From an uncultured Candidatus Neoarthromitus sp. (GTDB lineage Bacteria; Bacillota; Clostridia; Clostridiales; Clostridiaceae), in the NCBI GenBank assembly GCA_937890765.1, contig CALADQ010000009.1:15339-47338 (forward strand): DNA of 32,000 bases. Reading direction: 5' to 3'. This document shows positions 733 through 26,463 of the stretch, piece after piece; the first letter of the stretch is position 1, and every line of letters begins with the position of its first letter. The notes below the pieces were generated by a model. The model was given only the letters and a program-made list of their open reading frames with translations, ran no database searches and was not told where the DNA came from. A program made the translations under genes and the position numbers.

Positions 733-821
733 ACTTTTTCCCCCTAACAAAACTCATTAAATTATTTTATACACAGTTATTATATTATCATTTCATTAAT
801 CATAATATTGTTAAATTAAAA

Positions 822-5077: not shown

Positions 5078-5091
5078 AGGAGGAATTTTTT

Positions 5092-7754: not shown

Positions 7755-7844
7755 CTTCACAACCTCCATATAATTATTAATTTCTTTAGTAGTGATATTC
7801 TATCTATTATTGAATATAAAATCAACCGTTTTATTAATAAATTG

Positions 7845-8864: not shown

Positions 8865-8889
8865 AGAATTCACCACCTAAAATTTTTAT

Positions 8890-9909: not shown

Positions 9910-10892
9910 CAGAAATCAACCAAATTAAATAAATTTTCAAAAACTTCAAAATCTCTTTCACTAACATAATCTTTCAACTTTGTTTTAAATGAATGTCCAA
10001 TAATAAAAAGCGTGTTATCAGATTTGAAATCACACTTTAAAATTTCATCAACATTGTCATCATCAAAATAAAATACATTTTTAACATTTGGATAAAACTC
10101 GGAAAAACAATTTTTTATCACTCTCATATCCTTATCATTTTTTACGATTACAACATTTTCATATTTCAAAATCTTTTCTCTAAAAAGAAATCTAAAAATA
10201 ACTTCAATATGTTTTTCAACAACAATTTTTCTATTCTTATCTAGTGAAGTATTATCATTGTGAACTCTGTAATAATAAAGTTCTTCTTGAAGAATTCCAA
10301 TTTTACAACCATTTTGATGAAGCAAAATATATAAATAAACATCATCAACTAATCCATAATCTTTATGAAATGGAGAAAACTTTTTAAGAACATCACTTTT
10401 CCCAAAAAGATAACCTCCTCCGATATTACATCCCTCATAAATTAATTTATTTTGGTCATGATAATCTTTTATAGATCTGTTAACATATACCTCCATGCCT
10501 TTTTTAGATATTTCACTTCCATTACCAAAACTTTTTAAATAACAACCAACAACATCATAATCCTTTTCAAGAAGGAATTTTAATTGTTTTTCACACCTAT
10601 CTAAGTAATTGATATCATCTGAATCAACTCTGAATATATATTTTCCATTTGATATACTCAAAGCGTTTTTAACAGCTAAACACGTTCCCAAATTATTTTG
10701 AGTCATTACAATTATTCGCTTGTCCAATCTTTCATAATGCTTCAAGATTGAAAGAGAATTATCTGTTGAACCATCATCAACAAAAATTATTTCTAAATTT
10801 TTATAAGTTTGATTAATAATGCTATCAATACATTCGAACAAATACTTTTCCCTATTGTAAACAGGAACAATAACACTTACCAAATCGCCCAT
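9903..10892 (-). CDS. family 2 glycosyltransferase (copy C)
   Basis: The protein starts MGDLVSVIVPVYNREKYL and carries VDDGSTDNS and RVDSDDI. GAGGTG SD lies 7 nt before ATG 10892. It is a near-duplicate of copy B. Confidence 0.87.
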   Translation of the reverse strand: MGDLVSVIVPVYNREKYLFECIDSIINQTYKNLEIIFVDDGSTDNSLSILKHYERLDKRIIVMTQNNLGTCLAVKNALSISNGKYIFRVDSDDINYLDRCEKQLKFLLEKDYDVVGCYLKSFGNGSEISKKGMEVYVNRSIKDYHDQNKLIYEGCNIGGGYLFGKSDVLKKFSPFHKDYGLVDDVYLYILLHQNGCKIGILQEELYYYRVHNDNTSLDKNRKIVVEKHIEVIFRFLFREKILKYENVVIVKNDKDMRVIKNCFSEFYPNVKNVFYFDDDNVDEILKCDFKSDNTLFIIGHSFKTKLKDYVSERDFEVFENLFNLVDFCW

Positions 10893-10904
10893 AAAACTTC
10901 ACCT

Positions 10905-10942
10905 CAAAATAAAAATAGCCAGGAAAATAAAATTCCTAGCTA
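10905..10942 (-). terminator. terminator-like hairpin between the methyltransferase gene and the GT2 triplet
   Basis: On the minus strand the stem is UAGCUAGGAA (10942-10933) with UUCCUGGCUA (10925-10916), 9 of 10 bp paired. It is followed by UUUUUAUUUUG and then immediately by the GAGGTG SD of GT2 copy C. Confidence 0.5.
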
Positions 10943-11017
10943 CAAAATCTATATAAAATCAAATAAATATTTGATATTAACAATTTACCGTAAATTAATC
11001 TGCAAAAATAAAACAAT

Positions 11018-12886
11018 TTATTTAGTTATAACTAAAGTTCCACCTAAATCACATAAAGGAAATTTTAAAAGTTTATGGCCAATAATTTTTTCAAAATCTT
11101 TAACTGCCGATGATACACCTTTATACAATTTATGATTATAATCTCTAACAAAAATATATCCGCCTGGCGATAATCTATTGTAAAAATATTTCAATCCTTC
11201 TAAAGTTGCTTTATAAAAATTTACATCTAAACTAACAAAACAAAATCTTTCTTCAAATCCTTCTAAACTTTCAGGAAAATATCCTTGTTTAACAACAACT
11301 TTATCTTTATTTTGTAATTTATCTAATACCAAATCTACATTAGTAATTTTATAAATATCTCTAATATCATTTAAAATATTTTCATCTACAAATTTATTTA
11401 CTTTTTCAAATTCAATATCACGTTCGTCATAACTATTAAATGTGTCAAACAAATAAAGTTTTCTATCATAAAATACCTTACTTAAAAGTTTAGCAAAATC
11501 TCCTCTGAACACTCCTAATTCCGCTACTTCACCTAAAACATTGTTATTTTTAATCTCTCTCGCACAAAGTTCCAAAGTAAAAAACCTATTATAATCACCG
11601 CCATTAACATCATCTATATTAACTGGATTATTTTCATCGCTCACAAATTCATAATCACTATTAATTTTTGATGTTAAAACTACACCATTTGAATAATTAC
11701 TTCCATTAAAAATAGCATTACTTATATCTTTGAAAGCTTGTCCAATTTCATTAGCATATGATATCAGTTCTCCACTTTCCAGATAATTTTGAGCAGCTCC
11801 TCCATAATTTCTTTTTTTAGATAATATTCTTCCTATTAAACTGTACAAATTTTTTGAAGTTTCATTCATTATAGTGTGCTTTTCTGGATTATTACTTAAA
11901 TCTAATTCAATTTCTTCCAGAAATTTATCTATTTCAAAATCAGTGTTTATTAAAACTCTCTTCCCTTTTAGATATATAAGTTCTAACAAATTACATTCTT
12001 CTTTTTCTAATTCTTTTAAACATTCATCAAATTTAGTATAATCTTTAAGCTCTATATAACTTTCACATAAAACAAAAAGCGAATACATCTTCATAAAATG
12101 GTATAAATCTTCATCTAAATAAGAGTACTCCCCAGTATTATTTTTAATATAAGAGGCATAATTTATAATTGTTTGAGGAAGTTCTTTATTTTCTATTTTC
12201 AAAATTAAAAGATAATATTTCCATATAGGATTTGGATCTATTAAACTCATTCTGTTTAGTATAAATTCATTTGTATCCGATTTCCTAATAAAATTTTCAT
12301 AATCTCTTATTTTGAGAAGAGTTATTTTAGTATTAACATAGTTTTTATATTTTTTATTATAAATTCTATCTTCAAAATATTCTTCATTTTTTTCAATATC
12401 TAATATTTTAAAATTAATATTTGTACACGCTATTTCGTCTAATATAAAATATAATTCTTCTATTTCATCATAATCTTCTAAAAAAATTTCGTTTGAATTT
12501 ATATTTATTTGTACATTGTCAGAACATTTATAATTATGAATACTTGCATAAGAATTAGAACAAAATTTTTGCATATTTTTTTCAAATTGTCCATGCACAT
12601 TTAATTTTACTTCTCTCTTCCTATATCTTAAAAGATATTCTATAAAATTCTCCAAATCATCAAAAACACTATCTTCCAAAATATCTTTATAATCATTTCC
12701 AAAAAAGTATTTTTCTAAAGATTCAGAAACACTGTCGATCAATCTTAAAACTTTTAGTCTTTTCTGTATCTTCAAAATCAATTCTTTGTTAACTTTAGGC
12801 TTGCATAAAAGTTTCTCTACCATTTCATTAAAAAAATCAAAATTTCCTATTAGAAATTTTGAATAAGTATCCAAATAATCCCCCAC
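11018..12886 (-). CDS. fusion protein: N-terminal helical domain of about 400 aa (unknown) plus a C-terminal TylF/Methyltransf_24-like class I SAM-dependent methyltransferase
   Basis: GTG start at 12886 with AAGGAGG 7 nt upstream. C-terminal motifs are GEVAELGVFRGDFAKLL, LYLFDTF, VSLDVNFYKATLEGLKYFYNRLSPGGYIFVRDYN. These follow the macrocin-O-methyltransferase-type pattern E.GV.rG...LFD.F...lD.D.Y..T...L......L..GG....DDY. Confidence 0.75.
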   Translation of the reverse strand: MGDYLDTYSKFLIGNFDFFNEMVEKLLCKPKVNKELILKIQKRLKVLRLIDSVSESLEKYFFGNDYKDILEDSVFDDLENFIEYLLRYRKREVKLNVHGQFEKNMQKFCSNSYASIHNYKCSDNVQININSNEIFLEDYDEIEELYFILDEIACTNINFKILDIEKNEEYFEDRIYNKKYKNYVNTKITLLKIRDYENFIRKSDTNEFILNRMSLIDPNPIWKYYLLILKIENKELPQTIINYASYIKNNTGEYSYLDEDLYHFMKMYSLFVLCESYIELKDYTKFDECLKELEKEECNLLELIYLKGKRVLINTDFEIDKFLEEIELDLSNNPEKHTIMNETSKNLYSLIGRILSKKRNYGGAAQNYLESGELISYANEIGQAFKDISNAIFNGSNYSNGVVLTSKINSDYEFVSDENNPVNIDDVNGGDYNRFFTLELCAREIKNNNVLGEVAELGVFRGDFAKLLSKVFYDRKLYLFDTFNSYDERDIEFEKVNKFVDENILNDIRDIYKITNVDLVLDKLQNKDKVVVKQGYFPESLEGFEERFCFVSLDVNFYKATLEGLKYFYNRLSPGGYIFVRDYNHKLYKGVSSAVKDFEKIIGHKLLKFPLCDLGGTLVITK

Positions 12887-12950: not shown

Positions 12951-12995
12951 AAAAATTACCAAAATAAAGAAGCACATACGAATTGCATGTGCTTC
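12951..12995 (-). terminator. intrinsic terminator of the 724-aa surface protein gene
   Basis: A perfect 9-bp stem, gaagcacat (12969-12977) with atgtgcttc (12987-12995). It is followed on the minus strand by UUUAUUUUGG. Confidence 0.72.
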
Positions 12996-13005
12996 ATAAA
13001 TATTA

Positions 13006-15180
13006 TTATTCTACTTTTAATCCTATACTGAACAAGAAGTTTCTAGTTTCCAATTCTCCTAACATTCTCTGAGAAATGGCTTGCATTGCTGCTGTTCTAT
13101 CTCCAAGTTGTGCTATTGTTTGTTCAAGTGTTTTAACCCACCATGCCAAACCTTCAGCATCTGAAGTTCTTCCTGTTACCGATCTATACATACGTTCTAC
13201 ATATTTAGCATTATCTAAGTTCTTTTCTTTATATTCATTTTCATTTACTATATTTGAAGTAAAGTAATTAACTGTTATTTCTTGTGATGAAAGTTTTGAC
13301 GTCCAATAAAGCATACCATCTGGATCTCCATCTCTTAAGAAGAATATGTGGTAAAATCCTTCAATCCAGTCCTTAGCATTTGTAACTTTCTTAGTTGTAA
13401 ATGCTTCTATTTCCATTCCTAATTCTTCACCATTTACTAGGGTAACAACTAATTCTAATCCTTTGTGTTGATTATTTGGTGTCAATCCGTATAATTTCAA
13501 CAAACTATTCTTAGAATCATAGAAAGACTTAGCTATTGAATCACCATCTATCCTAACATCTTTAACTATGCCATCTTTATCATTAAACTTAATTTCAAAC
13601 TCTGCTTTAGTAGGAGTTATATTCTTAAGTTCAAATGACTTTAAGAAATCATCCGATATATTAACATCACTTCCTGATGATTTACCACCCATAGTTTTAA
13701 TAGGAATTGGATTTACAGAAATAAGATCATAATTTGTAAACCTTCTATTTATATCCCCATCACCTGAATTATAAGTTACAATTAATTCTACAAACTTATA
13801 AGTAGTACCTGGCTTTAAGCCTTCAATTATAAAATCTTTATAAGCTGTAGCATTCTTTTGTGGATCTTTAACTAAATCATCTGTCTTACCATAAGATTGA
13901 ACTTGACCTATTTTATCGGCTTCTTTAAGAATTCTACCTGAATAAATTTTCCCTTCTGAATCTTTAATTTGAATTCTTTTTACGGTATTTTCCGGATCAT
14001 AAATAGCATCATAGAAAACTATTCCATCTTCTAATGGTCTAACGTTAGAATGCTTATAACCATGTGATTTATCATCGCTTGAAAATGGACCTATATACTC
14101 AACAATACCATTTCCTTTTGAAGAAACCTCTCCCTTTGAATTTACAGATAAATCAGTATAATAAGAAACTGTAGATTTTATAGTCATAGGGTCCAATGGA
14201 TTTGAATTATCTACATTTATAGCTTCAGTTAACATAGGATCAACATAAGGAATTATTCCTTTAGCCCCTGAAATTTCTGATTGTTGAGAAACTTTCCTAA
14301 CAACACTACTTTCAACTAAAGATGGGAATAACAATTCGCCTTGAAATTTAATATTTGTTACTTCACTTCCAGTTGGTAAACCATAAACCTTAAAGTAAAT
14401 ATTTCCCTCTTCATCAACAATTCTAGGAGCATTGAACTTGTTTGTATACTGATTTACCTTAGATACAGTACTATCCATTATTAAATCTAATACTGTGATT
14501 TTCTTTTGATCAGACTTAGAACCAGTTGAATAATCTACAATAAGATTAAAATCTTTATTAACTAATTCACCAGATTCATACAACATACCTAGAGAATTTT
14601 GAATGACTGTTGCAAGAGTCTCTTGCTCAATTAAACTTATTTGACTTCCTTTGCCTTGTTCAAGCAAAATTTTATTTTTCTTAACCTCTTCAACTGCTTT
14701 ATCTATAGTGTTTTTAAGAGCCTCCCCAACATTTCCACCAAATTTAACTTTAATGTATATATATCCTCCTGTTAGAGCATCTCTTACATTTGACTTTTTG
14801 TAGTCTTTTACATCTTCTCTAATTACAACTGTGCTTGACCTTAAAACTCCACCTTCAATTCCAACTATGCTCATAAAATTTTCAGCAGATTTTTCAACCG
14901 AAGCTGGTGCCTTAAAATCTTCCGTACCTTTTAACGGTAACATCTCATTTTCATCATATTTACCATTACCATTAAAATCAACTGCTCCTGGATTTGAACC
15001 AGCTGGAACTTCTGTATTAAGAAGACCAACGGTGAACTGTCTATCGCCTTCTAAGTATTTATCTTCAGCTGCCGGTATAGCAAAAGCGGTGAAACTTCCA
15101 AAATTAACGCATATAGTTGAAAACATAAACATAGAAACTAATGTTGCAACTATCTTTTTAGTAAACTTCTTACTTAACAT
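13006..15180 (-). CDS. secreted cell-surface protein with tandem C-terminal DUF4214-type domains (S-layer-like candidate)
   Basis: The track ORF runs to 15231, but GAGGAGGAAGAG directly precedes ATG 15180. That start gives MLSKKFTKKIVATLVSMFMFSTICVNFGSFTAFA, a signal peptide. The C-terminus carries two DUF4214-like units: WIEGFYHIFFLRDGDPDGMLYWTSKL... and YVERMYRSVTGRTSDAEGLAWWVKTL.... It is a paralog of the 969-aa protein at 23293..26202. Confidence 0.82.
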   Translation of the reverse strand: MLSKKFTKKIVATLVSMFMFSTICVNFGSFTAFAIPAAEDKYLEGDRQFTVGLLNTEVPAGSNPGAVDFNGNGKYDENEMLPLKGTEDFKAPASVEKSAENFMSIVGIEGGVLRSSTVVIREDVKDYKKSNVRDALTGGYIYIKVKFGGNVGEALKNTIDKAVEEVKKNKILLEQGKGSQISLIEQETLATVIQNSLGMLYESGELVNKDFNLIVDYSTGSKSDQKKITVLDLIMDSTVSKVNQYTNKFNAPRIVDEEGNIYFKVYGLPTGSEVTNIKFQGELLFPSLVESSVVRKVSQQSEISGAKGIIPYVDPMLTEAINVDNSNPLDPMTIKSTVSYYTDLSVNSKGEVSSKGNGIVEYIGPFSSDDKSHGYKHSNVRPLEDGIVFYDAIYDPENTVKRIQIKDSEGKIYSGRILKEADKIGQVQSYGKTDDLVKDPQKNATAYKDFIIEGLKPGTTYKFVELIVTYNSGDGDINRRFTNYDLISVNPIPIKTMGGKSSGSDVNISDDFLKSFELKNITPTKAEFEIKFNDKDGIVKDVRIDGDSIAKSFYDSKNSLLKLYGLTPNNQHKGLELVVTLVNGEELGMEIEAFTTKKVTNAKDWIEGFYHIFFLRDGDPDGMLYWTSKLSSQEITVNYFTSNIVNENEYKEKNLDNAKYVERMYRSVTGRTSDAEGLAWWVKTLEQTIAQLGDRTAAMQAISQRMLGELETRNFLFSIGLKVE

Positions 15181-15369
15181 CTCTTCCTCCTCGAAAGTAA
15201 TTAAATTTAAAATTAAACCCGCTAAACTCATTAAATTTATTTGATTGCGTTTATAAGTCTATATTCGAGATATTTAAAAAAAAGTTTACTGTATTAATTA
15301 AATTTTTATTTTTATAATTTTCTAAATTAATTTTAGGTTCATAAAATATAATATAAATTTATATTTTCA

Positions 15370-15834
15370 TTACATTAGAGCATCTTTCACTAATACAACA
15401 TTAAATATTTTGCTAGTGTACATAGTTTCACTATCATATATAACAAATTTCAATAAAAGCATTTTATTTTTAGGAATAAATTCAATTCCTTTACTTAAAG
15501 AATCTTGGAAGCTAGAATCAATTGGAATCCTCAAAAATTCTAAAAATTTATCATTATTTTCCACATTTTTCACATATATAGCAAAATCATATTTTTCAAG
15601 TTTTTCAAAATCTATTTGTTTTAAATTATAATTTATGTATTCAATAATTTGATTTTTAGTTAAATTCTCTTGAGTTAAATCAGATAAAAAAAGCTCTTCA
15701 CCTTTCATTCCAATAAACTTTATTCCCAATATTTTATTATTTAAAGTTTTAAATATAAAATCGAAATTTAACATTACTAAAAATATAAAAATAAAAGAAA
15801 GTGTTCCTATAACATTACGCTTTTTATAATTCAA
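15370..15834 (-). CDS. hypothetical small protein with N-terminal TM anchor
   Basis: TTG start at 15834 with GAGGGTG 6 nt upstream. The N-terminus is hydrophobic (VIGTLSFIFIFLVMLNFDFIF). I recognise no family. Confidence 0.55.
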   Translation of the reverse strand: MNYKKRNVIGTLSFIFIFLVMLNFDFIFKTLNNKILGIKFIGMKGEELFLSDLTQENLTKNQIIEYINYNLKQIDFEKLEKYDFAIYVKNVENNDKFLEFLRIPIDSSFQDSLSKGIEFIPKNKMLLLKFVIYDSETMYTSKIFNVVLVKDALM

Positions 15835-15888
15835 CTACAACACCCTCATTCCAATTAAAAAATTTCAAAACGAAAACATATTCACAAT

Positions 15889-16878
15889 TTAAACTTCTAT
15901 ATATTTATCTTTCAATACCATTTCGACCCAATTTAAATTATTTAAATACCAATTCACAGTATGCTTTAATCCTTCAAAAATTTTAATTTTACACTCAAAA
16001 CTCAAATTACTATCTAAATTTTCAATATTGTTGTAGAAGTTATTCTCATCTAACTTTTCGTTATTTTTTAAAACTATTAAAGATTCATCTTTATTTAAAA
16101 AAGATAAAACTTTTTTTGTTAATTCCAACTCATCTATTTCTTCACAAGAAAAAATATTATAAATATTTCCTGATTTTCCAGTACGTATTATTTTATCTAT
16201 TGCAATAACATGATCATAAACGTGAACTAATTTCATAAACTTTCTATTTTTATTAAAAAAAATTTTTTCATTTCCAATAGCTTTAACAATAATTGATGGA
16301 ATGAATTTTTCTGGATATTGATATGGACCATAATTATTTGCACTTCTAGAAATAGTTACTTCCAAATCAGAATTTTTACAATAACACAATGCCAACATAT
16401 CACTTGAAGCCTTAGTAAAAAAATAAATGGATGATAGATTTAATTTATCATTATTACAGAAAAATTTTTCATCGTACGAATGTAAATTTTCATGTATTTC
16501 ATCTGTTGAAACTTGATGAAATTTTTTAACATTATACTTTAAACACATATCCATTAAATTTTTTGTACCTATTATATTGGTTTTCAAAAACAAATTACTA
16601 TCTTTAATAGACTTATGAGCATAAGTTTCAGCTGCAAAATTTAGAACTAAATCAAAATGCTCCTTTGCAAAAACATCACTCAAAAAATCATTGTCTAAAA
16701 TATTTCCTCTATAAAATTTGAAATTTGTATTTTCTTTAACTGATTCTAAATTTTCAAGATTACCGGCATAAGTTAAAGCATCTAAACAAACAATCTGAAT
16801 ATCTCTATACTTATTTATCATGTAGCTTATAAAATTACTTCCAATAAATCCAGCTCCGCCAGCTACGCAAACCTTCAT
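15889..16878 (-). CDS. NAD-dependent sugar-nucleotide 4,6-dehydratase/epimerase (SDR family), RmlB-like
   Basis: Rossmann motif GGAGFIGSNF. RmlB-like blocks are LTYAGNLENL, VSTDEI, Y-FFT-K (YxxxK) and SRSANNYGPYQYPEKFIPS. AGGAGG SD favours ATG 16878 over the track's TTG 16881. Confidence 0.8.
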   Translation of the reverse strand: MKVCVAGGAGFIGSNFISYMINKYRDIQIVCLDALTYAGNLENLESVKENTNFKFYRGNILDNDFLSDVFAKEHFDLVLNFAAETYAHKSIKDSNLFLKTNIIGTKNLMDMCLKYNVKKFHQVSTDEIHENLHSYDEKFFCNNDKLNLSSIYFFTKASSDMLALCYCKNSDLEVTISRSANNYGPYQYPEKFIPSIIVKAIGNEKIFFNKNRKFMKLVHVYDHVIAIDKIIRTGKSGNIYNIFSCEEIDELELTKKVLSFLNKDESLIVLKNNEKLDENNFYNNIENLDSNLSFECKIKIFEGLKHTVNWYLNNLNWVEMVLKDKYIEV

Positions 16879-16994
16879 CAAATCCTCCTATAAAATTAAA
16901 TACAAAACATTTTTCACTTACCTAAGTCTACTATAAATTTTAAAATTCTTCCACTTTATAAAATAACAATAAATAATTAAATTTATAAAAATTC

Positions 16995-17023
16995 TTTATA
17001 GTTAAACAAATTTCATATATAAT
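16995..17023 (+). promoter_or_regulatory. candidate sigma-A promoter for the riboswitch-ade transcript
   Basis: The -10 is TATAAT at 17018-17023. A weak -35 (TTTATA, 16995-17000) sits at 17-nt spacing. The -10 context atatataatgttt is identical to that upstream of codB. Confidence 0.35.
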
Positions 17024-17036
17024 GTTTACTTATAAC

Positions 17037-17105
17037 CTTCGTATAAGCTTAATAATATGGTTTAAGCGTTTCTACAATATCACCGAGAATGATATTACTA
17101 TGAAG
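17037..17105 (+). promoter_or_regulatory. purine riboswitch aptamer, guanine/hypoxanthine type
   Basis: The sequence is CUUCGUA-UAAG-CUUAAUAAUAUGGUUUAAGC-GUUUCUAC-AAUAUCACCGAGAAUGAUAUU-ACU-AUGAAG. It aligns block by block with the xpt and add aptamers as I recall them: P1, a P2 with an AUAUGG loop, J2-3 GUUUCUAC, and a P3 with a CCGAGAA loop. The specificity position (17098) is C, as in guanine sensors. Confidence 0.85.
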
Positions 17106-17158
17106 ATTAAAATCCACGAAGGTTATAATATTTATTTACAAAAAGGTGGATTTGAAAA

Positions 17159-18892
17159 TTGAACAAACAAATTTATATTGAAAATATTAAAGCTTCAAGT
17201 AAACAAATATTATGCAATCTTGTTATTAAAAACATCACAGTCGTGGATGTTTTTCAAAATTCTACATTCGTATGCGACGTAGCAATTCATAATGGTTATA
17301 TCGTCGGTCTTGGAGAATATAAAGGACAAATCGAAATTGATGGAACTGGTAAATATATTTCTCCAGGATTAATTGATGCACATGCTCACATCGAATCATC
17401 TCTTTTAACTCCAAGAGAATATTATAAAACCGCTCTCCTCCATGGAATAACAACTGCCATAGTAGATCCTCATGAAATAGGAAATGTTTTAGGAGCAGAT
17501 GGAATAAATCTCATGATAGAAATGAGTAAAAATATACCGTTTGACTTTTATTTCATGCTTCCCTCTTGTGTTCCTTGCACAAATTTTGAAAATGCAGGAG
17601 CAATTTTAAAAAGCAAAGATTTAGAACCATTATACAATAATGAAAAAGTTTTAGGTCTCGCTGAAGTTATGGATTTTCCATCAATAATAAATTTGAATGA
17701 GGATATGATAGAAAAACTTTATTTTGCAAATGAAAATAATAAAGTTATCGATGGACACGGAGCTGGATTTAATATAGATAACATAAATACTTATGCAACT
17801 TGTTACATAAAAACCGATCATGAATGCAATAATTATCAAGAATTAGTTGAGCGAGTTAGACGTGGAATGTATGTACACATAAGGGAAGGCACTGTTTCTA
17901 AAAATTTAAACGATCTTGTGAAAGGCGTTTCAATTCACAATAGTAGGAAACTTTGTCTGTGTACAGATGATAAACACATTGACGATTTATTAAAATATGG
18001 ATCAATTGATAATTCTATAAGGCTTTGCATAAAAAATGGATTGAATGCAGAAATTTCTATTCAAATGGGAACTATAAATTCTGCTGAATGTTATGGTTTA
18101 AAAAATAAAGGAGCAATAGCTCCTGGTTTTATTGCAGATTTTTTAATTTTAGATTCTCTTCATGATTTTAAAATTTCAAGCGTTTATAAAAATGGAGTTT
18201 TAGTTGTTAAAAATAATATTTTAATAAATCAAGATAAAAATCATTTTGATTTCAATATTCCAACTTCAGTTAAAATTCCAAATTTAAATGAAGAACATTT
18301 CAAAATTGATTTAACAGGAAAATCTTTTTTAAACGTAATTGAAGTTATACCAAATAGTTTGAAAACAAATCATTTAAAATTTTCTATAGACGAACTCAAT
18401 TTGAAAGAAGAATTTGTTTCATGTCCCGAACACGACTTGATAAAAATTTCTGTCATTGAAAGACATAACAATACTGGAAATATTGGAATTGGAATTGTAA
18501 AAGGATTAAATCTTAAATCAGGTGCAATTGCAACGACAATAGCTCATGATTCTCATAATTTAATAGTTTGTGGGACAAACGATAACGACATGATTTTAGC
18601 TTGCAATAAAATAAAAGAAATTGATGGTGGAATTGCAATAGCTAATGATAATGAAATCAAATGCTTTTTAAAATTAGAAATAGCAGGACTCATTACAAAC
18701 AAACCACACGAAGAAGTTCTAAAGGATTTAAACAAACTTCATGAAGAAATTTCAAAAATATCTAACGATGTGAATTTTAATCAATTTTTAATGTTATCAT
18801 TCTTATCTTTACCTGTAATTCCAAATATTAAAATTACAGACAAAGGCCTATTTGACAGCACGCATTTTAAATTCATAGATGTTGCATTTTAA
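17159..18892 (+). CDS. ade: adenine deaminase
   Basis: 577 aa. It has the amidohydrolase metal motif ISPGLIDAHAHIESSLLTP, and its length and architecture are as in Bacillus AdeC. TTG start with GGTGGA SD 8 nt upstream. Confidence 0.92.
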   Translation: MNKQIYIENIKASSKQILCNLVIKNITVVDVFQNSTFVCDVAIHNGYIVGLGEYKGQIEIDGTGKYISPGLIDAHAHIESSLLTPREYYKTALLHGITTAIVDPHEIGNVLGADGINLMIEMSKNIPFDFYFMLPSCVPCTNFENAGAILKSKDLEPLYNNEKVLGLAEVMDFPSIINLNEDMIEKLYFANENNKVIDGHGAGFNIDNINTYATCYIKTDHECNNYQELVERVRRGMYVHIREGTVSKNLNDLVKGVSIHNSRKLCLCTDDKHIDDLLKYGSIDNSIRLCIKNGLNAEISIQMGTINSAECYGLKNKGAIAPGFIADFLILDSLHDFKISSVYKNGVLVVKNNILINQDKNHFDFNIPTSVKIPNLNEEHFKIDLTGKSFLNVIEVIPNSLKTNHLKFSIDELNLKEEFVSCPEHDLIKISVIERHNNTGNIGIGIVKGLNLKSGAIATTIAHDSHNLIVCGTNDNDMILACNKIKEIDGGIAIANDNEIKCFLKLEIAGLITNKPHEEVLKDLNKLHEEISKISNDVNFNQFLMLSFLSLPVIPNIKITDKGLFDSTHFKFIDVAF

Positions 18893-18900
18893 AAAATACA

Positions 18901-18930
18901 TTGATTTATAAATTGAAATCAATATATAAT
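18901..18930 (+). promoter_or_regulatory. candidate sigma-A promoter of the codBA leader
   Basis: TTGATT (18901-18906), an 18-nt spacer, then TATAAT (18925-18930). Confidence 0.45.
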
Positions 18931-18946
18931 GTTTTAAAGAAAACTA

Positions 18947-18984
18947 GTCCTTTAAATTTAGTCCAGAGAGGCTAACAAGGTCGA
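18947..18984 (+). promoter_or_regulatory. PyrR-binding anti-antiterminator stem-loop
   Basis: GUCCUUUAAAUUUAGUCCAGAGAGGCUAACAAGGUCGA contains the PyrR binding-loop consensus ARUCCAGAGAGGYU (18960-18973). It also has the flanking CCUUUAA...AAGG lower stem described for Bacillus pyr attenuators. Confidence 0.82.
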
Positions 18985-19027
18985 CCGTTATAAAAAAGTT
19001 TTTACACAATCTTTGCATATTAAAATC

Positions 19028-19058
19028 GACCTTCTTTAAATTTAAGAAGGTCTTTTTT
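19028..19058 (+). terminator. attenuator terminator of the codBA leader
   Basis: The stem is GACCUUCUU (19028-19036) with AAGAAGGUC (19044-19052), followed by UUUUUU. Its 5' arm region, UCGACCUU (19026-19033), can instead pair with AAGGUCGA (18977-18984) as an antiterminator. Confidence 0.82.
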
Positions 19059-19112
19059 GTTATAAATTTTAAGACTAGTTTTCATAATCAATAATTTTTA
19101 GGAGATTGATTT

Positions 19113-20360
19113 ATGAAAAAAATAATTCATTTAAACAACAACGATTACGAACTTTCTAACGTTTTTAGTAAAGACAAAAAAGGATTTTTCTCAATGCTAG
19201 TTATTATGCTTGGATTTACATTTTTCTCAGCAAGTATGATGACAGGTGGGACTCTTGGAACTGGTTTGGATTTCAAAAATTTTATCATTGCAGTTGCTGC
19301 AGGAAATTTAATTCTCGCAATATACACTGGCCTTCTTGCATACGTTGGTTCTTCTACAGGACTATCGATGCATTTGTTAACGAGATATTCATTTGGAGAA
19401 AAAGGTTCTTATTTAGCATCTTTTATAACAAGTATAACTCAGATTGGTTGGTTTGGAGTTGGAATTTCAATGTTTGCAATACCAATCGCAAATAGATTTA
19501 ATATAAATGTTTATGTTTTAGTTGGAATAACTGGGATTCTCATGACATCAACCGCATATTTCGGAATAAAATCCTTGACTATATTAAGTGCCATAGCAGT
19601 ACCTGCAATTGCAATATTAGGTAGCACTTCAATTTTTATAGCTACAAATTCTGTTGGTGGAATAAATGACTTGATGAATATAACTCCTGTTGATAAAATT
19701 TCTTTAATTAGTGCAATTTCATTATGCATAGGGTCATTCATAAGTGGTGGAACAGTTACACCAGACTTCGCGAGATTTTCAAAAAAGAAAATGTCTGCGG
19801 TATTAACAACAGTTATCGCATTTTTCATTGGGAATTCATTAATGTTTCTATTTGGAGCAATAGGAGCTATGGTTAAAGGAACTGCCGAAGTAGCAGATGT
19901 ATTATTTTCACAAGGGCTCGTAATACCTGCAATAATAGTTTTAGGTTTAAACATTTGGACTACAAACGACAATGCACTTTACACTTCTGGGCTTGGACTT
20001 TCAAACATAACAAAAATATCTAAAAAGAAACTTGTGTTAATAAGTGGTTTAATTGGAACTGTAGGAGCGATATGGCTCAACAATAATTTTATTGAATTTC
20101 TAACATTTTTAAACTCTATGCTTCCACCAATTGGAGGAATAATAATCGCAGATTTTTTCTTCGTAAACAAACGCAAATATGAAAAAATAGAAAATGTAAA
20201 ATTCAAATCCATAAATCCAATTGCCATAATTTCATTTTTAATTGGATTTTCCACAGCTCACTTAATAAAATTTGGGATAACAGCAATAAATGTTTTGATT
20301 ATTACAATTATTTCTTATGTTATTGGAATGAAATTATTTTATAAGAAAGGAACTCATTAA
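19113..20360 (+). CDS. codB: cytosine permease (NCS1 family)
   Basis: 415 aa. The blocks [36 protein letters not shown] and [19 protein letters not shown] closely match E. coli CodB as I recall it. Confidence 0.92.
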
Positions 20361-21625
20361 TGTTAATTAAAAATATTAAACTTTTAGACAGTGAAAAAAT
20401 TGTAAGTATAAGAATAGAAAATAAAATTATAACCGAAATTAATTCTGATTTATCTCCTTATGAAAATGAAGAAGTGATTGAAGGAAATAATCTTTTAGCA
20501 ATTCCTCCATTCATAGAACCGCACATTCATCTCGATACGACTTTAACAGCTGGAGAACCAAAATGGAACAAAAGCGGAACTCTTTTCGAAGGGATAAAGC
20601 GATGGAGTGAAAGAAAAGAATTTTTAACAAAGCACGATGTTAAATCACGAGCTATGAAAGTTGTAAAATGGCAAATTGCAAATGGCATTCAATTCATACG
20701 AACTCATGTGGATGTGACGGATAAAAATTTAGTTGCATTAGAAGCTATGCTCGAACTTAAAGATGATTTAAAAAATTTTGTTACTCTTCAAATAGTTGCG
20801 TTCCCTCAAGAAGGAATTTTATCTTTTAAAAATGGTAAAGAATTATTGGAGCAATCAATAAAATTAGGTGCTGATGTTGTTGGTGCAATTCCACATTTTG
20901 AATTTACAAGAGAGTACGGAGTTGAATCTATAAATTTTATTTTCGATTTAGCGACGAAGTACAATAAACTTATTGATGTTCATTGCGATGAAATTGATGA
21001 TGAACAATCTAGATTTTTAGAAGTAGTTGCAACTAGAGCTTTAGAAAGTGGATTAAAAAATAAAGTTACTGCTAGTCATACAACAGCGATGGGCTCTTAC
21101 AACAACGCTTACACTTTTAAATTATTTAGGCTTTTGAAATTATCAAAAATAAATTTTGTGTGCAACCCTTTAATAAACACTCATCTTCAAGGAAGGTTTG
21201 ACACATATCCAAAACGAAGAGGCTTAACTCGTGTTAAAGAATTAAATGAAAATAATATAAATGTTTGTTTTGGACACGATGACATATTAGACCCATGGTA
21301 TCCAATGGGAACAGGAAACATGATGGAAGTTTTGCATTTTGGACTTCACGTGTGTCAAATGATGGGATATGATGACATAAATGAATCAATTAAATTTATA
21401 ACTAAAAATAGCGCATTAACATTAAACATAGAAGATGATTATAAAATTGAAATTTCAAAACCTGGAAATCTAATTATACTTAACAGTGAAAATATTTTTG
21501 ATGCTGTGAGAAAAAAGTGTGACGTTATCTATTCAATTAGGGAAGGAAAAATAATTTCAAAAAACAATCCTAAACAATCTTACGTGAACTTAAATGGACT
21601 TGAGGAAATAAATTTTATGAAGTAA
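20360..21625 (+). CDS. codA: cytosine deaminase
   Basis: The block [38 protein letters not shown]...[17 protein letters not shown] closely matches E. coli CodA. The start overlaps the codB stop (TAATG), which suggests translational coupling. Confidence 0.95.
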
Positions 21626-21664
21626 ATGGATTTTAATTTTATCCATTTGCTTTTTTGTTTTTTG
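21624..21664 (+). terminator. intrinsic terminator after codA
   Basis: The stem is aaatggat (21624-21631) with atccattt (21641-21648), followed by gcttttttgttttttg. Confidence 0.75.
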
Positions 21665-21719
21665 CAAAAAATAATTTTGAGTTATCCACACTCTTATGCA
21701 CCCTGTGTTGTTAAATTCA

Positions 21720-21748
21720 TTGTAAACATTAAACATTAATGCTATAAT
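21720..21748 (+). promoter_or_regulatory. candidate extended -10 promoter of the GT2-TPR gene
   Basis: TTGTAA (21720-21725), a 17-nt spacer, then TGcTATAAT (the -10 at 21743-21748). Confidence 0.55.
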
Positions 21749-21841
21749 TTTGTAGAATTAACAATAAACATATTAGTGATTTTAACAAAAATCTAAAATT
21801 AAAATTTATAATGTACGCAACTTGCTGAAAGGTGGTATAAG

Positions 21842-23245
21842 ATGTTAACCCTACGTTCGATAACAGAAAGTATAGATATTGATTATTTTAAATTTAATTT
21901 AAATTTTCATAAATACATTGAAGACAAATTGAAACAAGACAAGTTCAAAACAACAAAAGAATTTAAAAAGAATTTAAAAAGAAGAATACAACTTTTAAGT
22001 TGCATAAATGGTACATGCCCTGATTTGTTGAAATTCTTTATAAATGATGATTACACAAATTATCAAGAAGATTTTACTAACGAAGACCTTGTTGATTTAG
22101 TGAACAAATTTTCAGACGATGAACCAATAAAATTAAGTGTAAATCTAATAGTTTATAATGAAGAACGTTGCATAGAACGCTGTCTATCCTCCCTTCTAAC
22201 CTTCGCTGACGAAATTTTAGTTTTAGACACTGGGTCCACAGACAATACAACTAAAATAATCGAAGAAAAATTCCCACAAGTAAAACTTTTTCGTGATAAA
22301 TGGAGAAAAGATTTTGCATACTCGCGAAATATTTTAATAGATAAATCTACAAACGATTGGATTCTTTCAATTGACGCCGATGAAACGCCAATAGATGAAT
22401 TTCATCTCATAAAAGATGTTATTTCTCTATTCAACAATTTTAAAGCTGATAAAGATCACCCTCTTGTATTTTCACCTACTATAGATTCATTAGGTCAAAA
22501 AATAAATACAACAAAAAGAATTTTCAACAAAACACATGAAATGAAATTTGATGGGAAGATTCACGAAGAAATTGTATCTAAAAATGAAAAGGAAATCAAT
22601 TATATAATGCTATCACTAACTTTAAGTCATGACGGATATCATCCCGATGTATTTAAAGAGAAAAATAAGGCAGAGAGAAATACAGAAATCCTAGAAAAAA
22701 TGATAAAATTAGAGCCAAACAAAATAAGATGGTATTATTTTTTAGGACGCGAAAAAAATATTTTAGGACACGATATTGATGAATGTATAAAAATTTTAAA
22801 ATCTGGTTTGAAATTAAAACATACTCAAAATTCTATAGAAAATTTTTACTACAATATTTTAACTTTACTTGCAAAAATATCTGTATCTCATAAAAAATAT
22901 GATTTATTAAAAGAAGTTATCGAATTAATGGAATATGAAATTCCAAATTCCCTAGATGCATTTTATTTTAAATTAATATTGGAAAATGATTCAGTAATGA
23001 GTGATAAATTTCTACAAATAAATAATATGGTAAAATCTATTGGTGATATTTCAAATAAAGTAAATACAATTGATGAAACATATTCTCATATACTTCACAC
23101 TTTAGGTTTAATATATTTAAGTTTCAGAGATTATACAAGAGCATTTTACTATTTTAATCAAATTCAATCTCAAAAAAATATAGATGCCATCAAAGAGATT
23201 CTTTTACCACTTAAAAATGAAATAGATGAATTTATGAAAAAATAA
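21842..23245 (+). CDS. GT2 glycosyltransferase fused to a C-terminal TPR-like helical domain (SunS/GmaR-like architecture)
   Basis: The GT-A core is LSVNLIVYNEERCIERCL...ILVLDTGSTDNTTKIIEEKFPQVKLFRDKWRKDFAYSRN...SIDADE. It is followed by HDGYHPDV...ERNTEILEKMIKLEPNKIRWYYFLGRE and helical repeats. AGGTGG SD lies 6 nt before the ATG. Confidence 0.8.
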   Translation: MLTLRSITESIDIDYFKFNLNFHKYIEDKLKQDKFKTTKEFKKNLKRRIQLLSCINGTCPDLLKFFINDDYTNYQEDFTNEDLVDLVNKFSDDEPIKLSVNLIVYNEERCIERCLSSLLTFADEILVLDTGSTDNTTKIIEEKFPQVKLFRDKWRKDFAYSRNILIDKSTNDWILSIDADETPIDEFHLIKDVISLFNNFKADKDHPLVFSPTIDSLGQKINTTKRIFNKTHEMKFDGKIHEEIVSKNEKEINYIMLSLTLSHDGYHPDVFKEKNKAERNTEILEKMIKLEPNKIRWYYFLGREKNILGHDIDECIKILKSGLKLKHTQNSIENFYYNILTLLAKISVSHKKYDLLKEVIELMEYEIPNSLDAFYFKLILENDSVMSDKFLQINNMVKSIGDISNKVNTIDETYSHILHTLGLIYLSFRDYTRAFYYFNQIQSQKNIDAIKEILLPLKNEIDEFMKK

Positions 23246-23252
23246 AAAAATA

Positions 23253-23290
23253 AAAGATGAAGTTTGAAAGAACTTCATCTTTATTTTTAT
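23253..23290. terminator. bidirectional terminator between the convergent GT2-TPR and surface protein genes
   Basis: A perfect 12-bp stem, aaagatgaagtt (23253-23264) with aacttcatcttt (23271-23282). An A-run lies upstream and atttttat downstream. Confidence 0.8.
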
Positions 23291-23292
23291 AA

Positions 23293-26202
23293 TTATTCAA
23301 ATTTAATACCTAATTTTTTAGCCATGTCTTTAACTTCTGGCGTATCTAACATTCTTAAAACAACAGCTGATCTAGCCTGACTTTGAGTTTCCCCTGCTTT
23401 TATTCCTTTTTCAATTTCAGAAACCCAAAAAGCAACTCCTTCACTCTCTCCAGCTCTATCAACTATAGCATACATAGCCTCAACAAACTGAGTATTAGTT
23501 AAATTTTTCTCCAACATTTCTGGAGTAAATGAAACTTGTCCTAAAAATCCTTTTAAAGTTTCTTGTCCACTAACTAATCTTTGTGTCCAATACAACAAAC
23601 CTTCTTGTTCTGGCTCCCTGTTGAAAAATGCTCTATACACTCTAGCCACATATCCCGCAACTCCACCTTGAACTTGCGCATTATTTCCTTCAGAAGTTCT
23701 GAATGTTGGAACATCCAAAGTAGTACTCTTAGTTCCATACTTAAGAACTAACTTCATATCTTTATACTCAGTTCCAACTCTAAGTCCTGATAGCTCAATT
23801 ATATTTTTATCAACATTGTACTTAGCAACAACTCCACTAACTCCTGAACCTGATACTTCAACTACTATTCCTTCTTTATCAGGATTTTTAATATCAGCAG
23901 TTACATTAGCAGTTGTTGTTGTTACTCCAGAAACTTGTACTCCTGAAGTTCCAACTTGAACCTTAGTATCACCAGCTCTCCCAGTAGCATATCTAGTTAT
24001 ACCCTGTTGTGTTTTAATTCCACCTGCATTTATAGAACCAAAAGCACCTATTGAATCTGTTCTTATAGTATTAACCCTATATCCATCCTCCGATGTAGTA
24101 AAATCAAACCTAAAATCTCTAGTCCTATCAGCCTGAATTCCAGTAATAGTTATTTCAACCATTTCTGAAGCCGATTCAACATTTGAAGCGTTAAAGTTCA
24201 ATTTAGCCTCATTACCAACTAGATAATCGTAATCTATATTACCTGATTTATCTACACCATTAACTACTCTATAAGTTTTTTCCATTTTAACATTAGCATC
24301 ATCTATTTTTTCATAAGTACCATTATTATTTATATAAGCAGTAACTCCATTTAAAATCGAATCCGCATCTTTCACTCTTCCAACAAATCTCACTCCACCT
24401 GGAATTTGCTCATACTCTAACTTGGAATCAATCCACGCTTCAGCTCTATTTTCTTTATTAGTAGTTGTAAACCTATTTTCATTTGTTCTAGTATTTGGGA
24501 ACAACACATTAGAATAAGGAGCACTTGCATTTCTTCCTAAAGAAACCGGATTTCCATACCTCTCCCTTCCATTATCATTATAAACAGTTTCAAGGGACAA
24601 GAAATCATAATTTCTATTCTGTTCTAATCCAGTTATTTCGATAGCAAACCAACTAGATTTACTGTTTTTACCATCTTTAGACTTAACATTCTTAACTTCG
24701 TAAGTTTCCCCACCTCTTAATCCTCTAACTTCAATTCTCTCAAGGTTAGTTGTGTCATCAACTTTAACAATGTAAGTCAATCTATCAAGACCAACATTTA
24801 CTTGATATAAATTACTTTTATTAAGCAGTGTATTATATCCACCAATCTCTGAAGATCTATTCTCAGACGTTGCAACAACTAAATATTTTCCTGTAACCCC
24901 AGGTGTTCCTGTAGCCCTACTATCATCAAATCTAACTCTTTGAGTTCTCTCTCCATCACCTGATTTATAAGTTATATCCATGTATTCAAACTCATAAGTT
25001 GTCCTATTATTAAGACCATTTATCTTAATATCTTTGTACCTATTCCTATAATCTACATCTGAAGCAGAAAAATTTGACTTTGGCTCTCCAGGATATTTAC
25101 CAACTGAGAAGTTACCTACTTCAGCATTAAATACATCTCCTCTTCTGTCAGTAACAGTAACACCTGTTATAACTGAATCTGTATCCTTAACAACATCAAC
25201 CAAAGTAACTGATGAACCTGAAACATTAACAAACGTATGCTCATTTTGCTCTATTATATTATCACCATCATCAACAAATTGATTAGCTTGTTTTCCATCT
25301 ACGGATCTAATATAAGAGTATAAAGAATCAGTTAAAGTCCAAGTAGCAGTAGGTATAACAGCACTTCCTGTATTATAGTTTAAATCTGTCTGTAGTGAGT
25401 AAGTTGTAAATTCCTTTTTAATACTATCATAGCTTGTACCTAAATACAAATCGGTCCTAGAATCTAATTCTATATTAGTTACATTTATTCCAGTTGGAAG
25501 TCCTCTTAGAGTTAAGTAAACCAATCCATTCTCGTCAACCAAAGAATTTAAATTCTCAACTGAAGAAGCCTTTCTAGGAGATTCGAATCTAATATCTTTC
25601 GCTGAAACATTAGTAGTCCTTGTTTTTCCATCTTGCTCATAAGTCACTAACAACTCAAGCCCTTTATTCTTGTCCAATCCTAAAAATGCATCATTCAATT
25701 TTTTACCAAGTATATCTTGTCTAGCTGTAGAGATTGAATTTCCACCATTATGCTGGTTAGAATTAATCAGATTAACATTGTCTCTGTACTCACTAACAGC
25801 ATTACTTATTTCACTTCTTAGGTAGGATTCCAAATTTCCTGTAATCCTTAATCCTAATCTTATAAAACCACCTTGTCTATCGTCAGCTTCATAAGCTGTT
25901 TTATTTTGTCCAACAATAGTCTTTTTACCTAAAACACCAGTTTCCACTTTTTCAATTGATAGAACAGTTTCTTTAGTTTCAGATGCTGTTGAAGATAACT
26001 TATCATTAGAATTTATATCGTAAGCATCAACAACCTCTAAACCATTCAAAGACCAGTTATTTTCGAAGAACCCTTGATCTTTAGATATATCTACATTAGT
26101 AGTTACGCCCGCAGCATTCGCATGAGTAGCTGGAACAACCGTTACCGCCATAGCAATCAGAGCGACGCTTGCAACCAAATTTCTCAATTTTTTAGATTTC
26201 AT
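23293..26202 (-). CDS. large secreted cell-surface protein with tandem C-terminal DUF4214-type domains (S-layer-like candidate)
   Basis: AGGAGG SD. The signal peptide is MKSKKLRNLVASVALIAMAVTVVPATHANA/AG. The mature region is Thr/Ser/Gly/Val-rich and beta-type. The C-terminus has YVARVYRAFFNREPEQEGLLYWTQRLVSGQ... and FVEAMYAIVDRAGESEGVAFWVSEIEKG... (DUF4214 pattern). I see no LPXTG, SLH or CWB2 motifs. Confidence 0.85.
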   Translation of the reverse strand: MKSKKLRNLVASVALIAMAVTVVPATHANAAGVTTNVDISKDQGFFENNWSLNGLEVVDAYDINSNDKLSSTASETKETVLSIEKVETGVLGKKTIVGQNKTAYEADDRQGGFIRLGLRITGNLESYLRSEISNAVSEYRDNVNLINSNQHNGGNSISTARQDILGKKLNDAFLGLDKNKGLELLVTYEQDGKTRTTNVSAKDIRFESPRKASSVENLNSLVDENGLVYLTLRGLPTGINVTNIELDSRTDLYLGTSYDSIKKEFTTYSLQTDLNYNTGSAVIPTATWTLTDSLYSYIRSVDGKQANQFVDDGDNIIEQNEHTFVNVSGSSVTLVDVVKDTDSVITGVTVTDRRGDVFNAEVGNFSVGKYPGEPKSNFSASDVDYRNRYKDIKINGLNNRTTYEFEYMDITYKSGDGERTQRVRFDDSRATGTPGVTGKYLVVATSENRSSEIGGYNTLLNKSNLYQVNVGLDRLTYIVKVDDTTNLERIEVRGLRGGETYEVKNVKSKDGKNSKSSWFAIEITGLEQNRNYDFLSLETVYNDNGRERYGNPVSLGRNASAPYSNVLFPNTRTNENRFTTTNKENRAEAWIDSKLEYEQIPGGVRFVGRVKDADSILNGVTAYINNNGTYEKIDDANVKMEKTYRVVNGVDKSGNIDYDYLVGNEAKLNFNASNVESASEMVEITITGIQADRTRDFRFDFTTSEDGYRVNTIRTDSIGAFGSINAGGIKTQQGITRYATGRAGDTKVQVGTSGVQVSGVTTTTANVTADIKNPDKEGIVVEVSGSGVSGVVAKYNVDKNIIELSGLRVGTEYKDMKLVLKYGTKSTTLDVPTFRTSEGNNAQVQGGVAGYVARVYRAFFNREPEQEGLLYWTQRLVSGQETLKGFLGQVSFTPEMLEKNLTNTQFVEAMYAIVDRAGESEGVAFWVSEIEKGIKAGETQSQARSAVVLRMLDTPEVKDMAKKLGIKFE

Positions 26203-26463
26203 ATTTGTCCTCCTAAATCTTTAAAACAAAGTTAAAAACTACTTCACCATAATAATTATTACTAAAATTTAATTATTGTGTATTGTGATTTTCTCTTGGC
26301 ATAATAATAACATTTGTAATCTTTTTTTAACATATTTATATAATATGATTTTTCTAATGTTTTACTATTATTTTGAATTATATCTCCTATTCTCTCTATT
26401 TTCCTTACAATTTTATTTTTTAAATTACACTTTAACACGAAGTATAACACCTATAATTTAATA

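Follow-up and report, generated by a model that had tools for sequence, protein, structure and literature searches.

The two genes and their products

The DNA analysed here, referred to throughout as the window, is a stretch of 32,000 nucleotides from contig CALADQ010000009.1 of an uncultured Candidatus Neoarthromitus sp. (assembly GCA_937890765.1). It carries two genes, designated P0001 and P0002, which encode predicted secreted proteins of 724 and 969 amino acids respectively, each ending in a tail that matches the domain DUF4214 and that is considered here as a candidate for retention on the cell surface. Judged by its sequence, the source organism is a segmented filamentous bacterium (SFB; Candidatus Arthromitus/Savagella group), and named homologues of the proteins were found in SFB-mouse-Japan, SFB-rat-Yit, SFB-turkey and 'Dwaynia gallinarum' (Candidatus Arthromitus). 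Both genes were present as a single copy in all five species genomes of the genus, with identities of 68-74% for P0001 and 56-67% for P0002.

P0001 is located at 13006..15180 on the reverse strand. The mechanically called open reading frame (13006-15231, reverse strand) encodes 741 amino acids from its first ATG, and 98% of it was covered by 62 homologues with lengths of 706-725 amino acids, apart from one fragment of 621 amino acids; the orthologues are all 717-725 amino acids long. Because of these homologue lengths and of a Shine-Dalgarno sequence just upstream (GAGGAGG, 15186..15192, reverse strand), the start was assigned to the ATG at 15180, giving the protein of 724 amino acids; the gene call rests in addition on its single-copy occurrence in the genus. 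An intrinsic terminator with an 11-bp stem and a T tail lies at 12969..12995 (reverse strand), and conservation of the region upstream of the gene was only moderate. P0002 is located at 23293..26202 (reverse strand) with a Shine-Dalgarno sequence (AGGAGG) at 26209..26214 (reverse strand), and a bidirectional terminator at 23253..23282 separates it from a convergent GT2 gene. The strong ribosome binding sites and strong terminators that the initial annotation had described were thus found at both genes. A block of 40 nucleotides approximately 100 nt 5' of P0002 (26303..26342, reverse strand) is 100% identical to mouse SFB and overlaps a promoter-like site, the P0002 proteins themselves being only 55-58% identical; it is a probable promoter or operator and may be a developmental one. 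No known RNA family was found upstream of either P0001 or P0002.

Each protein begins with a predicted Sec signal peptide, assigned by eye on the basis of a lysine-rich n-region, a hydrophobic core and an AXA-type cleavage site, and forms an N-terminal helix in the structural models. In P0001 the signal peptide comprises residues 1-34 (15079..15180, reverse strand; cleavage after AFA and before I), where A34, P36 and A37 are invariant among orthologues and the modelled helix spans residues 4-26, and in P0002 it comprises residues 1-30 (26113..26202, reverse strand; cleavage after ANA and before A).

The two proteins had initially been proposed to be paralogues which share internal motifs and near-identical termini. 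The motifs given there occur in the proteins, as do the two termini (...GLKVE and ...GIKFE), and BLASTP aligned the N-terminal bodies with 24% identity over 408 columns (E 2e-19) and the C-terminal 200 amino acids with 30% identity (E 1e-21), E values which place the relationship far beyond chance. The C-terminal block comprises the last beta-sandwich together with the tail; as the two blocks are collinear, P0002 carries approximately two extra internal modules.

AlphaFold (AF2) models (pLDDT 68.8 for P0001 and 80.8 for P0002) gave the same order in both proteins, namely a signal helix, a head domain, a string of beta-sandwiches (approximately three in P0001 and five in P0002) and a tail of eight helices. 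The alpha/beta head (approximately residues 88-300 of P0001, 14281..14919, and approximately residues 50-275 of P0002, 25378..26055, both on the reverse strand) was modelled as beta-strands around one long helix with a second helix, and the two heads are homologous. When a profile of the head was searched against 1.84 billion cluster representatives, three clusters with E values up to 1e-10 were recovered, all of them P0001-like or P0002-like, and sequence searches with the full proteins and with the head domain against PDB, Pfam and NCBIfam returned nothing beyond DUF4214. On sequence, the head is therefore an orphan domain, found in no proteins other than these two families of SFB.

The beta-sandwich modules (13396..14280 in P0001 and 23686..25377 in P0002, both on the reverse strand) are predicted to be of FN3/Ig type. 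In a whole-chain Foldseek search the models matched only tandem FN3/Ig arrays (probability approximately 1.0, with low whole-chain TM-scores), among which the S-layer protein SbsC was found at rank 19. The module YKDF..GLKPGTTYKF corresponds to the usual FN3-type strand signature (GL.P.T.Y.F), of which P0002 has four occurrences, and GLKPGTTYKF lies at residue 454 of P0001 (residue 471 of the 741-residue reading frame); the sequence score of P0002 for FN3 (PF00041) was 15.1 bits against a cut-off of 25. The body modules of the initial annotation would thus correspond to the FN3/Ig-type strand signature plus the orphan N-terminal domain.

The C-terminal region (13009..13395 in P0001 and 23296..23685 in P0002, both on the reverse strand) scored as DUF4214 (PF13946) with 48.7 bits in P0001 and 48.8 bits in P0002 (cut-off 23.2), in two stretches in each protein. 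These stretches had been described as two DUF4214 units; there are indeed two, and they are not separate units, since both contribute to one helical domain of approximately 125 amino acids resembling those of phycobilisome linkers. In an alignment of 24 paralogue tails, all from the source genome, an internal duplication was observed with the unit Y...F.R..D..G..YW ... EF, ending ...EF..L....G[IV].[YWF]. The profile built from these tails matched the REP domains of phycobilisome linkers (ApcE, E 7e-18; 2KY4, E 3.6e-8) over almost the full length of the profile, and it is because of this nearly end-to-end match that the pair is read as a single domain. The single-sequence score of P0001 for PF00427 was 14.8 bits, below the cut-off of 28.7, and homology between the tail, which comes from a Firmicute that is not photosynthetic, and phycobilisome linkers holds at the profile level only. 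No region of P0001 is more conserved than the tail (column conservation 0.92-0.95).

P0001 also contains an EF-hand/dockerin-like loop, DFNGNGKYDENE (residues 68-79; 14944..14979, reverse strand), which is a candidate Ca2+ site. The loop is invariant among orthologues, is situated close to the start of the mature protein, where the model has low confidence, and is one of only 6 sites in the proteome that match a relaxed EF-hand pattern. As an EF-hand proper it was rejected, as the strict PROSITE-type pattern fails (position 8 is Y) and there was no Pfam dockerin or EF-hand match.

The two genes had further been described as richer in GC than their neighbours and, on that account, as highly expressed. 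The GC content is indeed higher (0.30-0.33, compared to 0.22-0.29 for the neighbours; 0.31 and 0.34 for the two genes, compared to a genome median of 0.284; 80th and 94th percentile). However, GC at third codon positions (GC3) was below the genome median for both genes (33rd and 36th percentile), and the codon adaptation index (CAI), calculated against 27 genes of the ribosomal-protein operons (including infA and rpoA) plus EF-G, was unremarkable (62nd and 68th percentile). The GC excess therefore falls at codon positions 1 and 2 and is due to a composition rich in Gly, Ala, Thr, Val, Asp and Glu and not to codon bias, and as such it is no evidence of high expression. With the argument from composition refuted, it is highly unlikely that elevated GC marks these genes as highly expressed, even allowing for their strong Shine-Dalgarno sites and terminators.

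The DUF4214 tail across the genome

The source genome (1.56 Mb, 99.7% complete) was scanned for DUF4214, and 53 matches in 29 open reading frames were identified. Partner domains of the tail included Amidase_2 (in two N-acetylmuramoyl-L-alanine amidases), GH3, GH2, beta-lactamase-like and cohesin domains, and the tail was also found on giant FN3 proteins of 1528-2043 amino acids. In a sample of the family, all three genomes of the SFB genus had at least 43 DUF4214 matches, and of approximately 117 others only 2 had any (4 and 2 matches), and the expansion of the domain thus appears to be lineage-specific. In three DUF4214 proteins the module is N-terminal, directly behind the signal peptide; it would therefore be an autonomous module, and a role as a C-terminal sorting signal was ruled out by these three paralogues.

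Classical anchors were sought in both proteins and in the genome. Neither P0001 nor P0002 has an LP.[TSA]G or [NS]P.TG motif or a Pfam match to SLH, CWB2 or LysM, in agreement with the initial annotation. No sortase (PF04203), SLH or CWB2 domain was found in the 99.7% complete genome, and LysM was present in only 2 open reading frames, which are unrelated to P0001 and P0002. By sequence, the DUF4214 pair is the only candidate retention module of the two proteins. The earlier proposal that it serves in wall attachment stands in so far as it named this sole candidate, which is carried by 29 open reading frames, amidases included, in a genome with no sortase, SLH or CWB2. Its novelty does not stand, as anchoring by DUF4214 is a standing hypothesis for SFB (PMC3371716; bioRxiv 10.1101/813196; PMC12780176) which was rediscovered independently.

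Each of the two genes would accordingly be expected to encode a Sec-exported, acidic, cysteine-free surface protein made up of an SFB-specific head, an FN3/Ig rod and a DUF4214 tail. The tail would act as the general, sortase-independent module of the lineage, holding exported proteins non-covalently on the cell envelope, a part comparable to that of SLH in Bacillus and of CWB2 in Clostridioides difficile. Its ligand in the wall would be peptidoglycan or a secondary glycan, which the sugar genes nearby possibly produce, and both proteins would stay on the surface. We consider it probable that DUF4214 anchors both proteins in this manner; the distribution of the tail is as would be expected of a general wall-retention module, an analogy which suggests such a role and does not prove it.

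Several points weigh against this reading. The tails are mostly acidic (median pI 5.2), unlike many teichoic-acid-binding modules; the relatives of the tail in solved structures are all phycobilisome linker proteins, and the REP domains of these linkers bind proteins and are not known to bind glycans. In addition, the signal peptides of P0001 and P0002 were read by eye from the sequence, and the codon adaptation of both genes is average.

Given that its structurally characterised relatives are exclusively phycobilisome linkers, it was also considered whether the tail is a protein-docking or assembly module. It would then insert the 29 proteins into a scaffold or lattice made of protein, much as the linker domains of phycobilisomes fit into rings of phycobiliprotein, and would not itself bind peptidoglycan or a glycan of the wall. 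REP domains are the only matches of the tail profile among solved structures, the tails are acidic, and an open reading frame with four DUF4214 units and no other domain exists as a possible scaffold. However, two amidases and further enzymes active on the envelope have the tail, and modules that bind the wall are typical of such enzymes; no candidate receptor protein was identified. A 2026 preprint moreover proposes, from modelling and gene neighbourhood, that the RTX-DUF4214 protein Psh of Pseudomonas putida is held on the O-antigen (bioRxiv 10.64898/2026.09.02.748959), which argues for binding of a glycan. Docking to protein is therefore judged unlikely, and wall binding by the tail is preferred.

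A number of other DUF4214 proteins of the genome were recorded. A secreted protein of 374 amino acids (G000:C26:170168-171292) consists of a signal peptide and four DUF4214 units and nothing else, and might serve as a scaffold or compete for the site to which the tail binds. Of a further pair of proteins (G000:C10:9940-10863 and G000:C19:93544-94932), one joins a cohesin to a DUF4214 tail, and in the other a type I dockerin is combined with SH3_3 and, at the C-terminus, a VgrG3-like domain, a peptidoglycan-hydrolase module. By analogy with anchoring scaffoldins of the SLH-cohesin type, cohesin and dockerin may pair in these two proteins, so that a wall hydrolase would be tethered to a scaffold kept in place by DUF4214. 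A DUF4214 protein of 1130 amino acids with the lipobox LFAGC (G000:C5:21166-24558) is the sole other paralogue with the beta-sandwich modules of P0001 and P0002; its sequence predicts two attachments, one through a lipid and the other through the tail.

T-cell antigens and gene neighbourhood

P0002 aligned with the mouse SFB protein SFBM_1251 over residues 1-969 at 55-58% identity, with one match per genome; among named sequences, its closest matches were SFBM_1251 of SFB-mouse-Japan (55%) and proteins of SFB-turkey and SFB-rat-Yit. SFBM_1251 carries the peptide SGLIYVTL at residue 225, which is the H2-Kb epitope of SFBNYU_003240, a CD8 intraepithelial T-cell antigen of mouse SFB (PMC13174671). 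The equivalent position of P0002 is occupied by NGLVYLTL (residues 225-232; 25507..25530, reverse strand), in which 2 of the 8 residues differ from the epitope besides I/V swaps; the segment immediately precedes the GLPTG... motif and overlaps a modelled beta-strand (residues 228-235). The full-length match, the identical gene order and the aligned epitope segment show that P0002 is the orthologue of SFBNYU_003240/SFBM_1251. The reported CD8 T-cell response to the mouse orthologue indicates, indirectly, that this family at least is expressed in vivo.

The antigen also bears on whether the proteins are instead released as soluble, host-directed adhesins or immunomodulators, the tail serving in folding or stability. 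The mouse orthologue of P0002 does reach the MHC-I pathway of the host, and SFB proteins enter enterocytes by adhesion-triggered endocytosis. The uptake described in the literature is nevertheless that of a wall-associated protein in vesicles (bioRxiv 10.1101/813196), and the same tail occurs on housekeeping wall hydrolases, a distribution that a function away from the envelope would not readily explain. Release carries very little probability in our estimation, and retention on the surface is again preferred.

In genomes of the mouse and rat type, a gene for a DUF4214 protein of 1070/1065 amino acids was found two genes downstream of the P0001 orthologue, with TylF and one GT2 gene between them; it is itself situated between a NAGPA-like gene and the GT2 gene. 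The mouse protein of 1070 amino acids contains QFNGAVPNKTD, which differs in a single residue from QFSGAVPNKTD, the published epitope of SFB3340. Between its gene and the 003240 orthologue the distance is exactly ten genes, which would fit the locus tag 003340. A DNA pattern for the exact epitope gave no match in the genomes of the genus and family, owing to the S/N difference. P0001 was rejected as the Th17 antigen P3340, which is approximately 1070 amino acids long, has its near-epitope in a different gene and has an orthologue of its own in the source genome. This full-length reciprocal orthologue (39-40% identity; G000:C4:649-3873) lies at the start of another contig and is preceded by a partial DUF4214 tail at C4:132-383. 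The slot of the Th17 antigen in the window is taken by a gene for an Ltp-type lipoprotein of 203 amino acids (7158-7769, reverse strand).

The genes around P0001 and P0002 follow the order found in mouse SFB (lspA, Na/H exchanger, 981-residue DUF4214 protein, GT2, amidohydrolase, permease, adenine deaminase, epimerase, 374-residue protein, 719-residue DUF4214 protein), and synteny extends to rat SFB. Sugar-modifying genes flank both P0001 and P0002, and their linkage is conserved across SFB. A GT2 glycosyltransferase of 467 amino acids (21842..23245, forward strand) is convergent with P0002, a linkage kept in mouse SFB. Directly downstream of P0001 is a set (7890..12886, reverse strand) made up of a TylF-like methyltransferase fusion (11018-12886) and three GT2 genes (7890-10892), and upstream of it is an NAD-dependent sugar epimerase/dehydratase (15889..16881, reverse strand) whose position is kept in mouse and rat SFB. 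These genes would fit glycosylation of P0001 and P0002 and synthesis of the ligand of the tail alike.

The sugar-modification set beside P0001 is expanded in the window: the TylF-like protein has 622 amino acids, with approximately 320 additional N-terminal residues, compared to 298 amino acids in mouse and rat SFB, and it is followed by three GT2 genes where those genomes have one. Also upstream of P0001 is a membrane-anchored open reading frame of 154 amino acids with no Pfam match (15370..15834, reverse strand), which shares its N-terminal membrane-anchor sequence with the 374-residue protein found in this position in mouse and rat SFB and is a shortened version of it. Between P0001 and P0002 lies a nucleobase-salvage island, kept in mouse SFB, with a purine riboswitch (17019-17120, forward strand) upstream of the adenine deaminase gene and a PyrR binding site (18945-19060, forward strand) upstream of a cytosine/purine permease and amidohydrolase pair. 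Genes for MurT/GatD (lipid II amidation; 3740-5814, forward strand), UppP (1-750, reverse strand) and a NAGPA-like phosphodiester glycosidase (5859-7115, forward strand) adjoin the surface-protein block. The window as a whole is an envelope-biogenesis neighbourhood which is conserved in mouse and rat SFB.

Cryo-ET of SFB has revealed two outer layers (PMC12780176): the intracellular offspring have an S-layer (approximately 8 nm spacing), and the filaments a hair-like layer. P0001 and P0002 could be structural subunits of one or both, a role compatible with anchoring by DUF4214 and one that we regard as improbable. The mature proteins are 77 and 104 kDa with a pI of approximately 5 and no cysteine, and acidic pI, absence of cysteine and masses of this order are typical of S-layer proteins. 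Both genes are core, single copy and linked in all five genomes of the genus, the head domain is exclusive to their two families, and P0001 has its invariant Ca-loop-like motif. The identity of P0001 among species (68-74%) exceeds the published mean of 52% for SFB exoproteins (bioRxiv 10.1101/813196). A rod of 5-7 domains, if extended, would by estimate measure approximately 20-30 nm, compared to the 34 nm of the reported hairs. On the other side, codon adaptation of the two genes is average, the hairs could equally well be formed by the giant FN3-DUF4214 proteins, and the reported hair width of 1.3 nm is thinner than a string of Ig domains. It is quite unlikely, as a fuller version of this proposal, that P0001 and P0002 together build both of the layers, which alternate during development, and are held by DUF4214, the sugar genes nearby serving either to glycosylate the two proteins or to produce the glycan bound by the tail.

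Significance and comparison with known systems

Among commensals, SFB are the textbook case of bacteria that induce Th17, IgA and CD8 responses in the intestine, and their immunodominant antigens, P3340 and 003240, are all surface proteins with a DUF4214 tail. The question posed is how a Gram-positive bacterium with neither sortase nor SLH displays approximately 2% of its proteome on its surface. The locus offers two compact, well-conserved proteins, with orthologues in the mouse and rat strains of SFB, which are tractable, with which to ask what DUF4214 binds, and a ligand of the tail, if shown, would define a new class of Gram-positive wall-binding module.

P0001 and P0002 are uncharacterised orthologues within a catalogued family of SFB surface proteins, and as such are ordinary for SFB. 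Pamp et al. (2012; PMC3371716) reported a set of 19 secreted proteins specific to SFB that have in common a C-terminal DUF4214 region of phycobilisome-linker-like fold. For this organism, which has no sortase, Jonsson et al. (bioRxiv 10.1101/813196) postulated that at least 14 surface proteins, the Th17 antigen P3340 among them, are anchored by the motif. More recently, a cryo-ET study from 2025 named DUF4214 as the likely surface-anchoring domain and located the Th17 antigen at the wall by immunogold (PMC12780176). To the work of Pamp and Jonsson the present analysis adds a genome-wide census of the tail with its enzyme partners, the orphan head domain and an anatomy at the level of domains; what is new in it is the restriction of the head to two families, the reading of the tail as one domain and the attribution of the GC excess to amino-acid composition.

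Like Cluster.1 and Cluster.3 of Pamp et al., the proteins of the window come from an SFB genome and combine a signal peptide (here predicted, by eye) with a divergent body and C-terminal tandem helices resembling 2KY4. Nothing essential appears to differ from the proteins described by Pamp and Jonsson, the orthologues in the four other species genomes of the genus (including those of the mouse and rat type) being 56-74% identical. The Th17 antigen has the same DUF4214 tail and a different body, in which the head shared by P0001 and P0002 is absent; in BLASTP the two proteins aligned with it only over their C-terminal 170-290 residues, at 21-31% identity.

Beyond SFB, Psh resembles the proteins of the window in being a surface DUF4214 protein encoded beside surface-glycan genes, and differs in its Gram-negative host, its export by a type I secretion system (T1SS) and its RTX body. 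The REP domain of phycobilisome linkers (PF00427; ApcE, CpcG; PDB 2KY4) is a homologous helical domain of approximately 125 amino acids and, like the tail, has an internal duplication. The linker, however, works in a cytoplasmic light-harvesting antenna, where it binds protein, and SFB are without phycobilisomes.

With regard to function, the closest parallels are CWB2 in C. difficile and SLH in Bacillus and Clostridium, in each of which one non-covalent module recurs in a family of some dozens of exported proteins, among them the S-layer protein, amidases and adhesins. These modules may be N- or C-terminal and are often encoded near genes for wall glycans. DUF4214, for which such a role is proposed here, has no relationship to either in sequence or in fold, being all-helical and similar to phycobilisome linkers. 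The parallel extends to the protein that joins a cohesin to a DUF4214 tail, which mirrors the anchoring scaffoldins in which a cohesin is joined to SLH.

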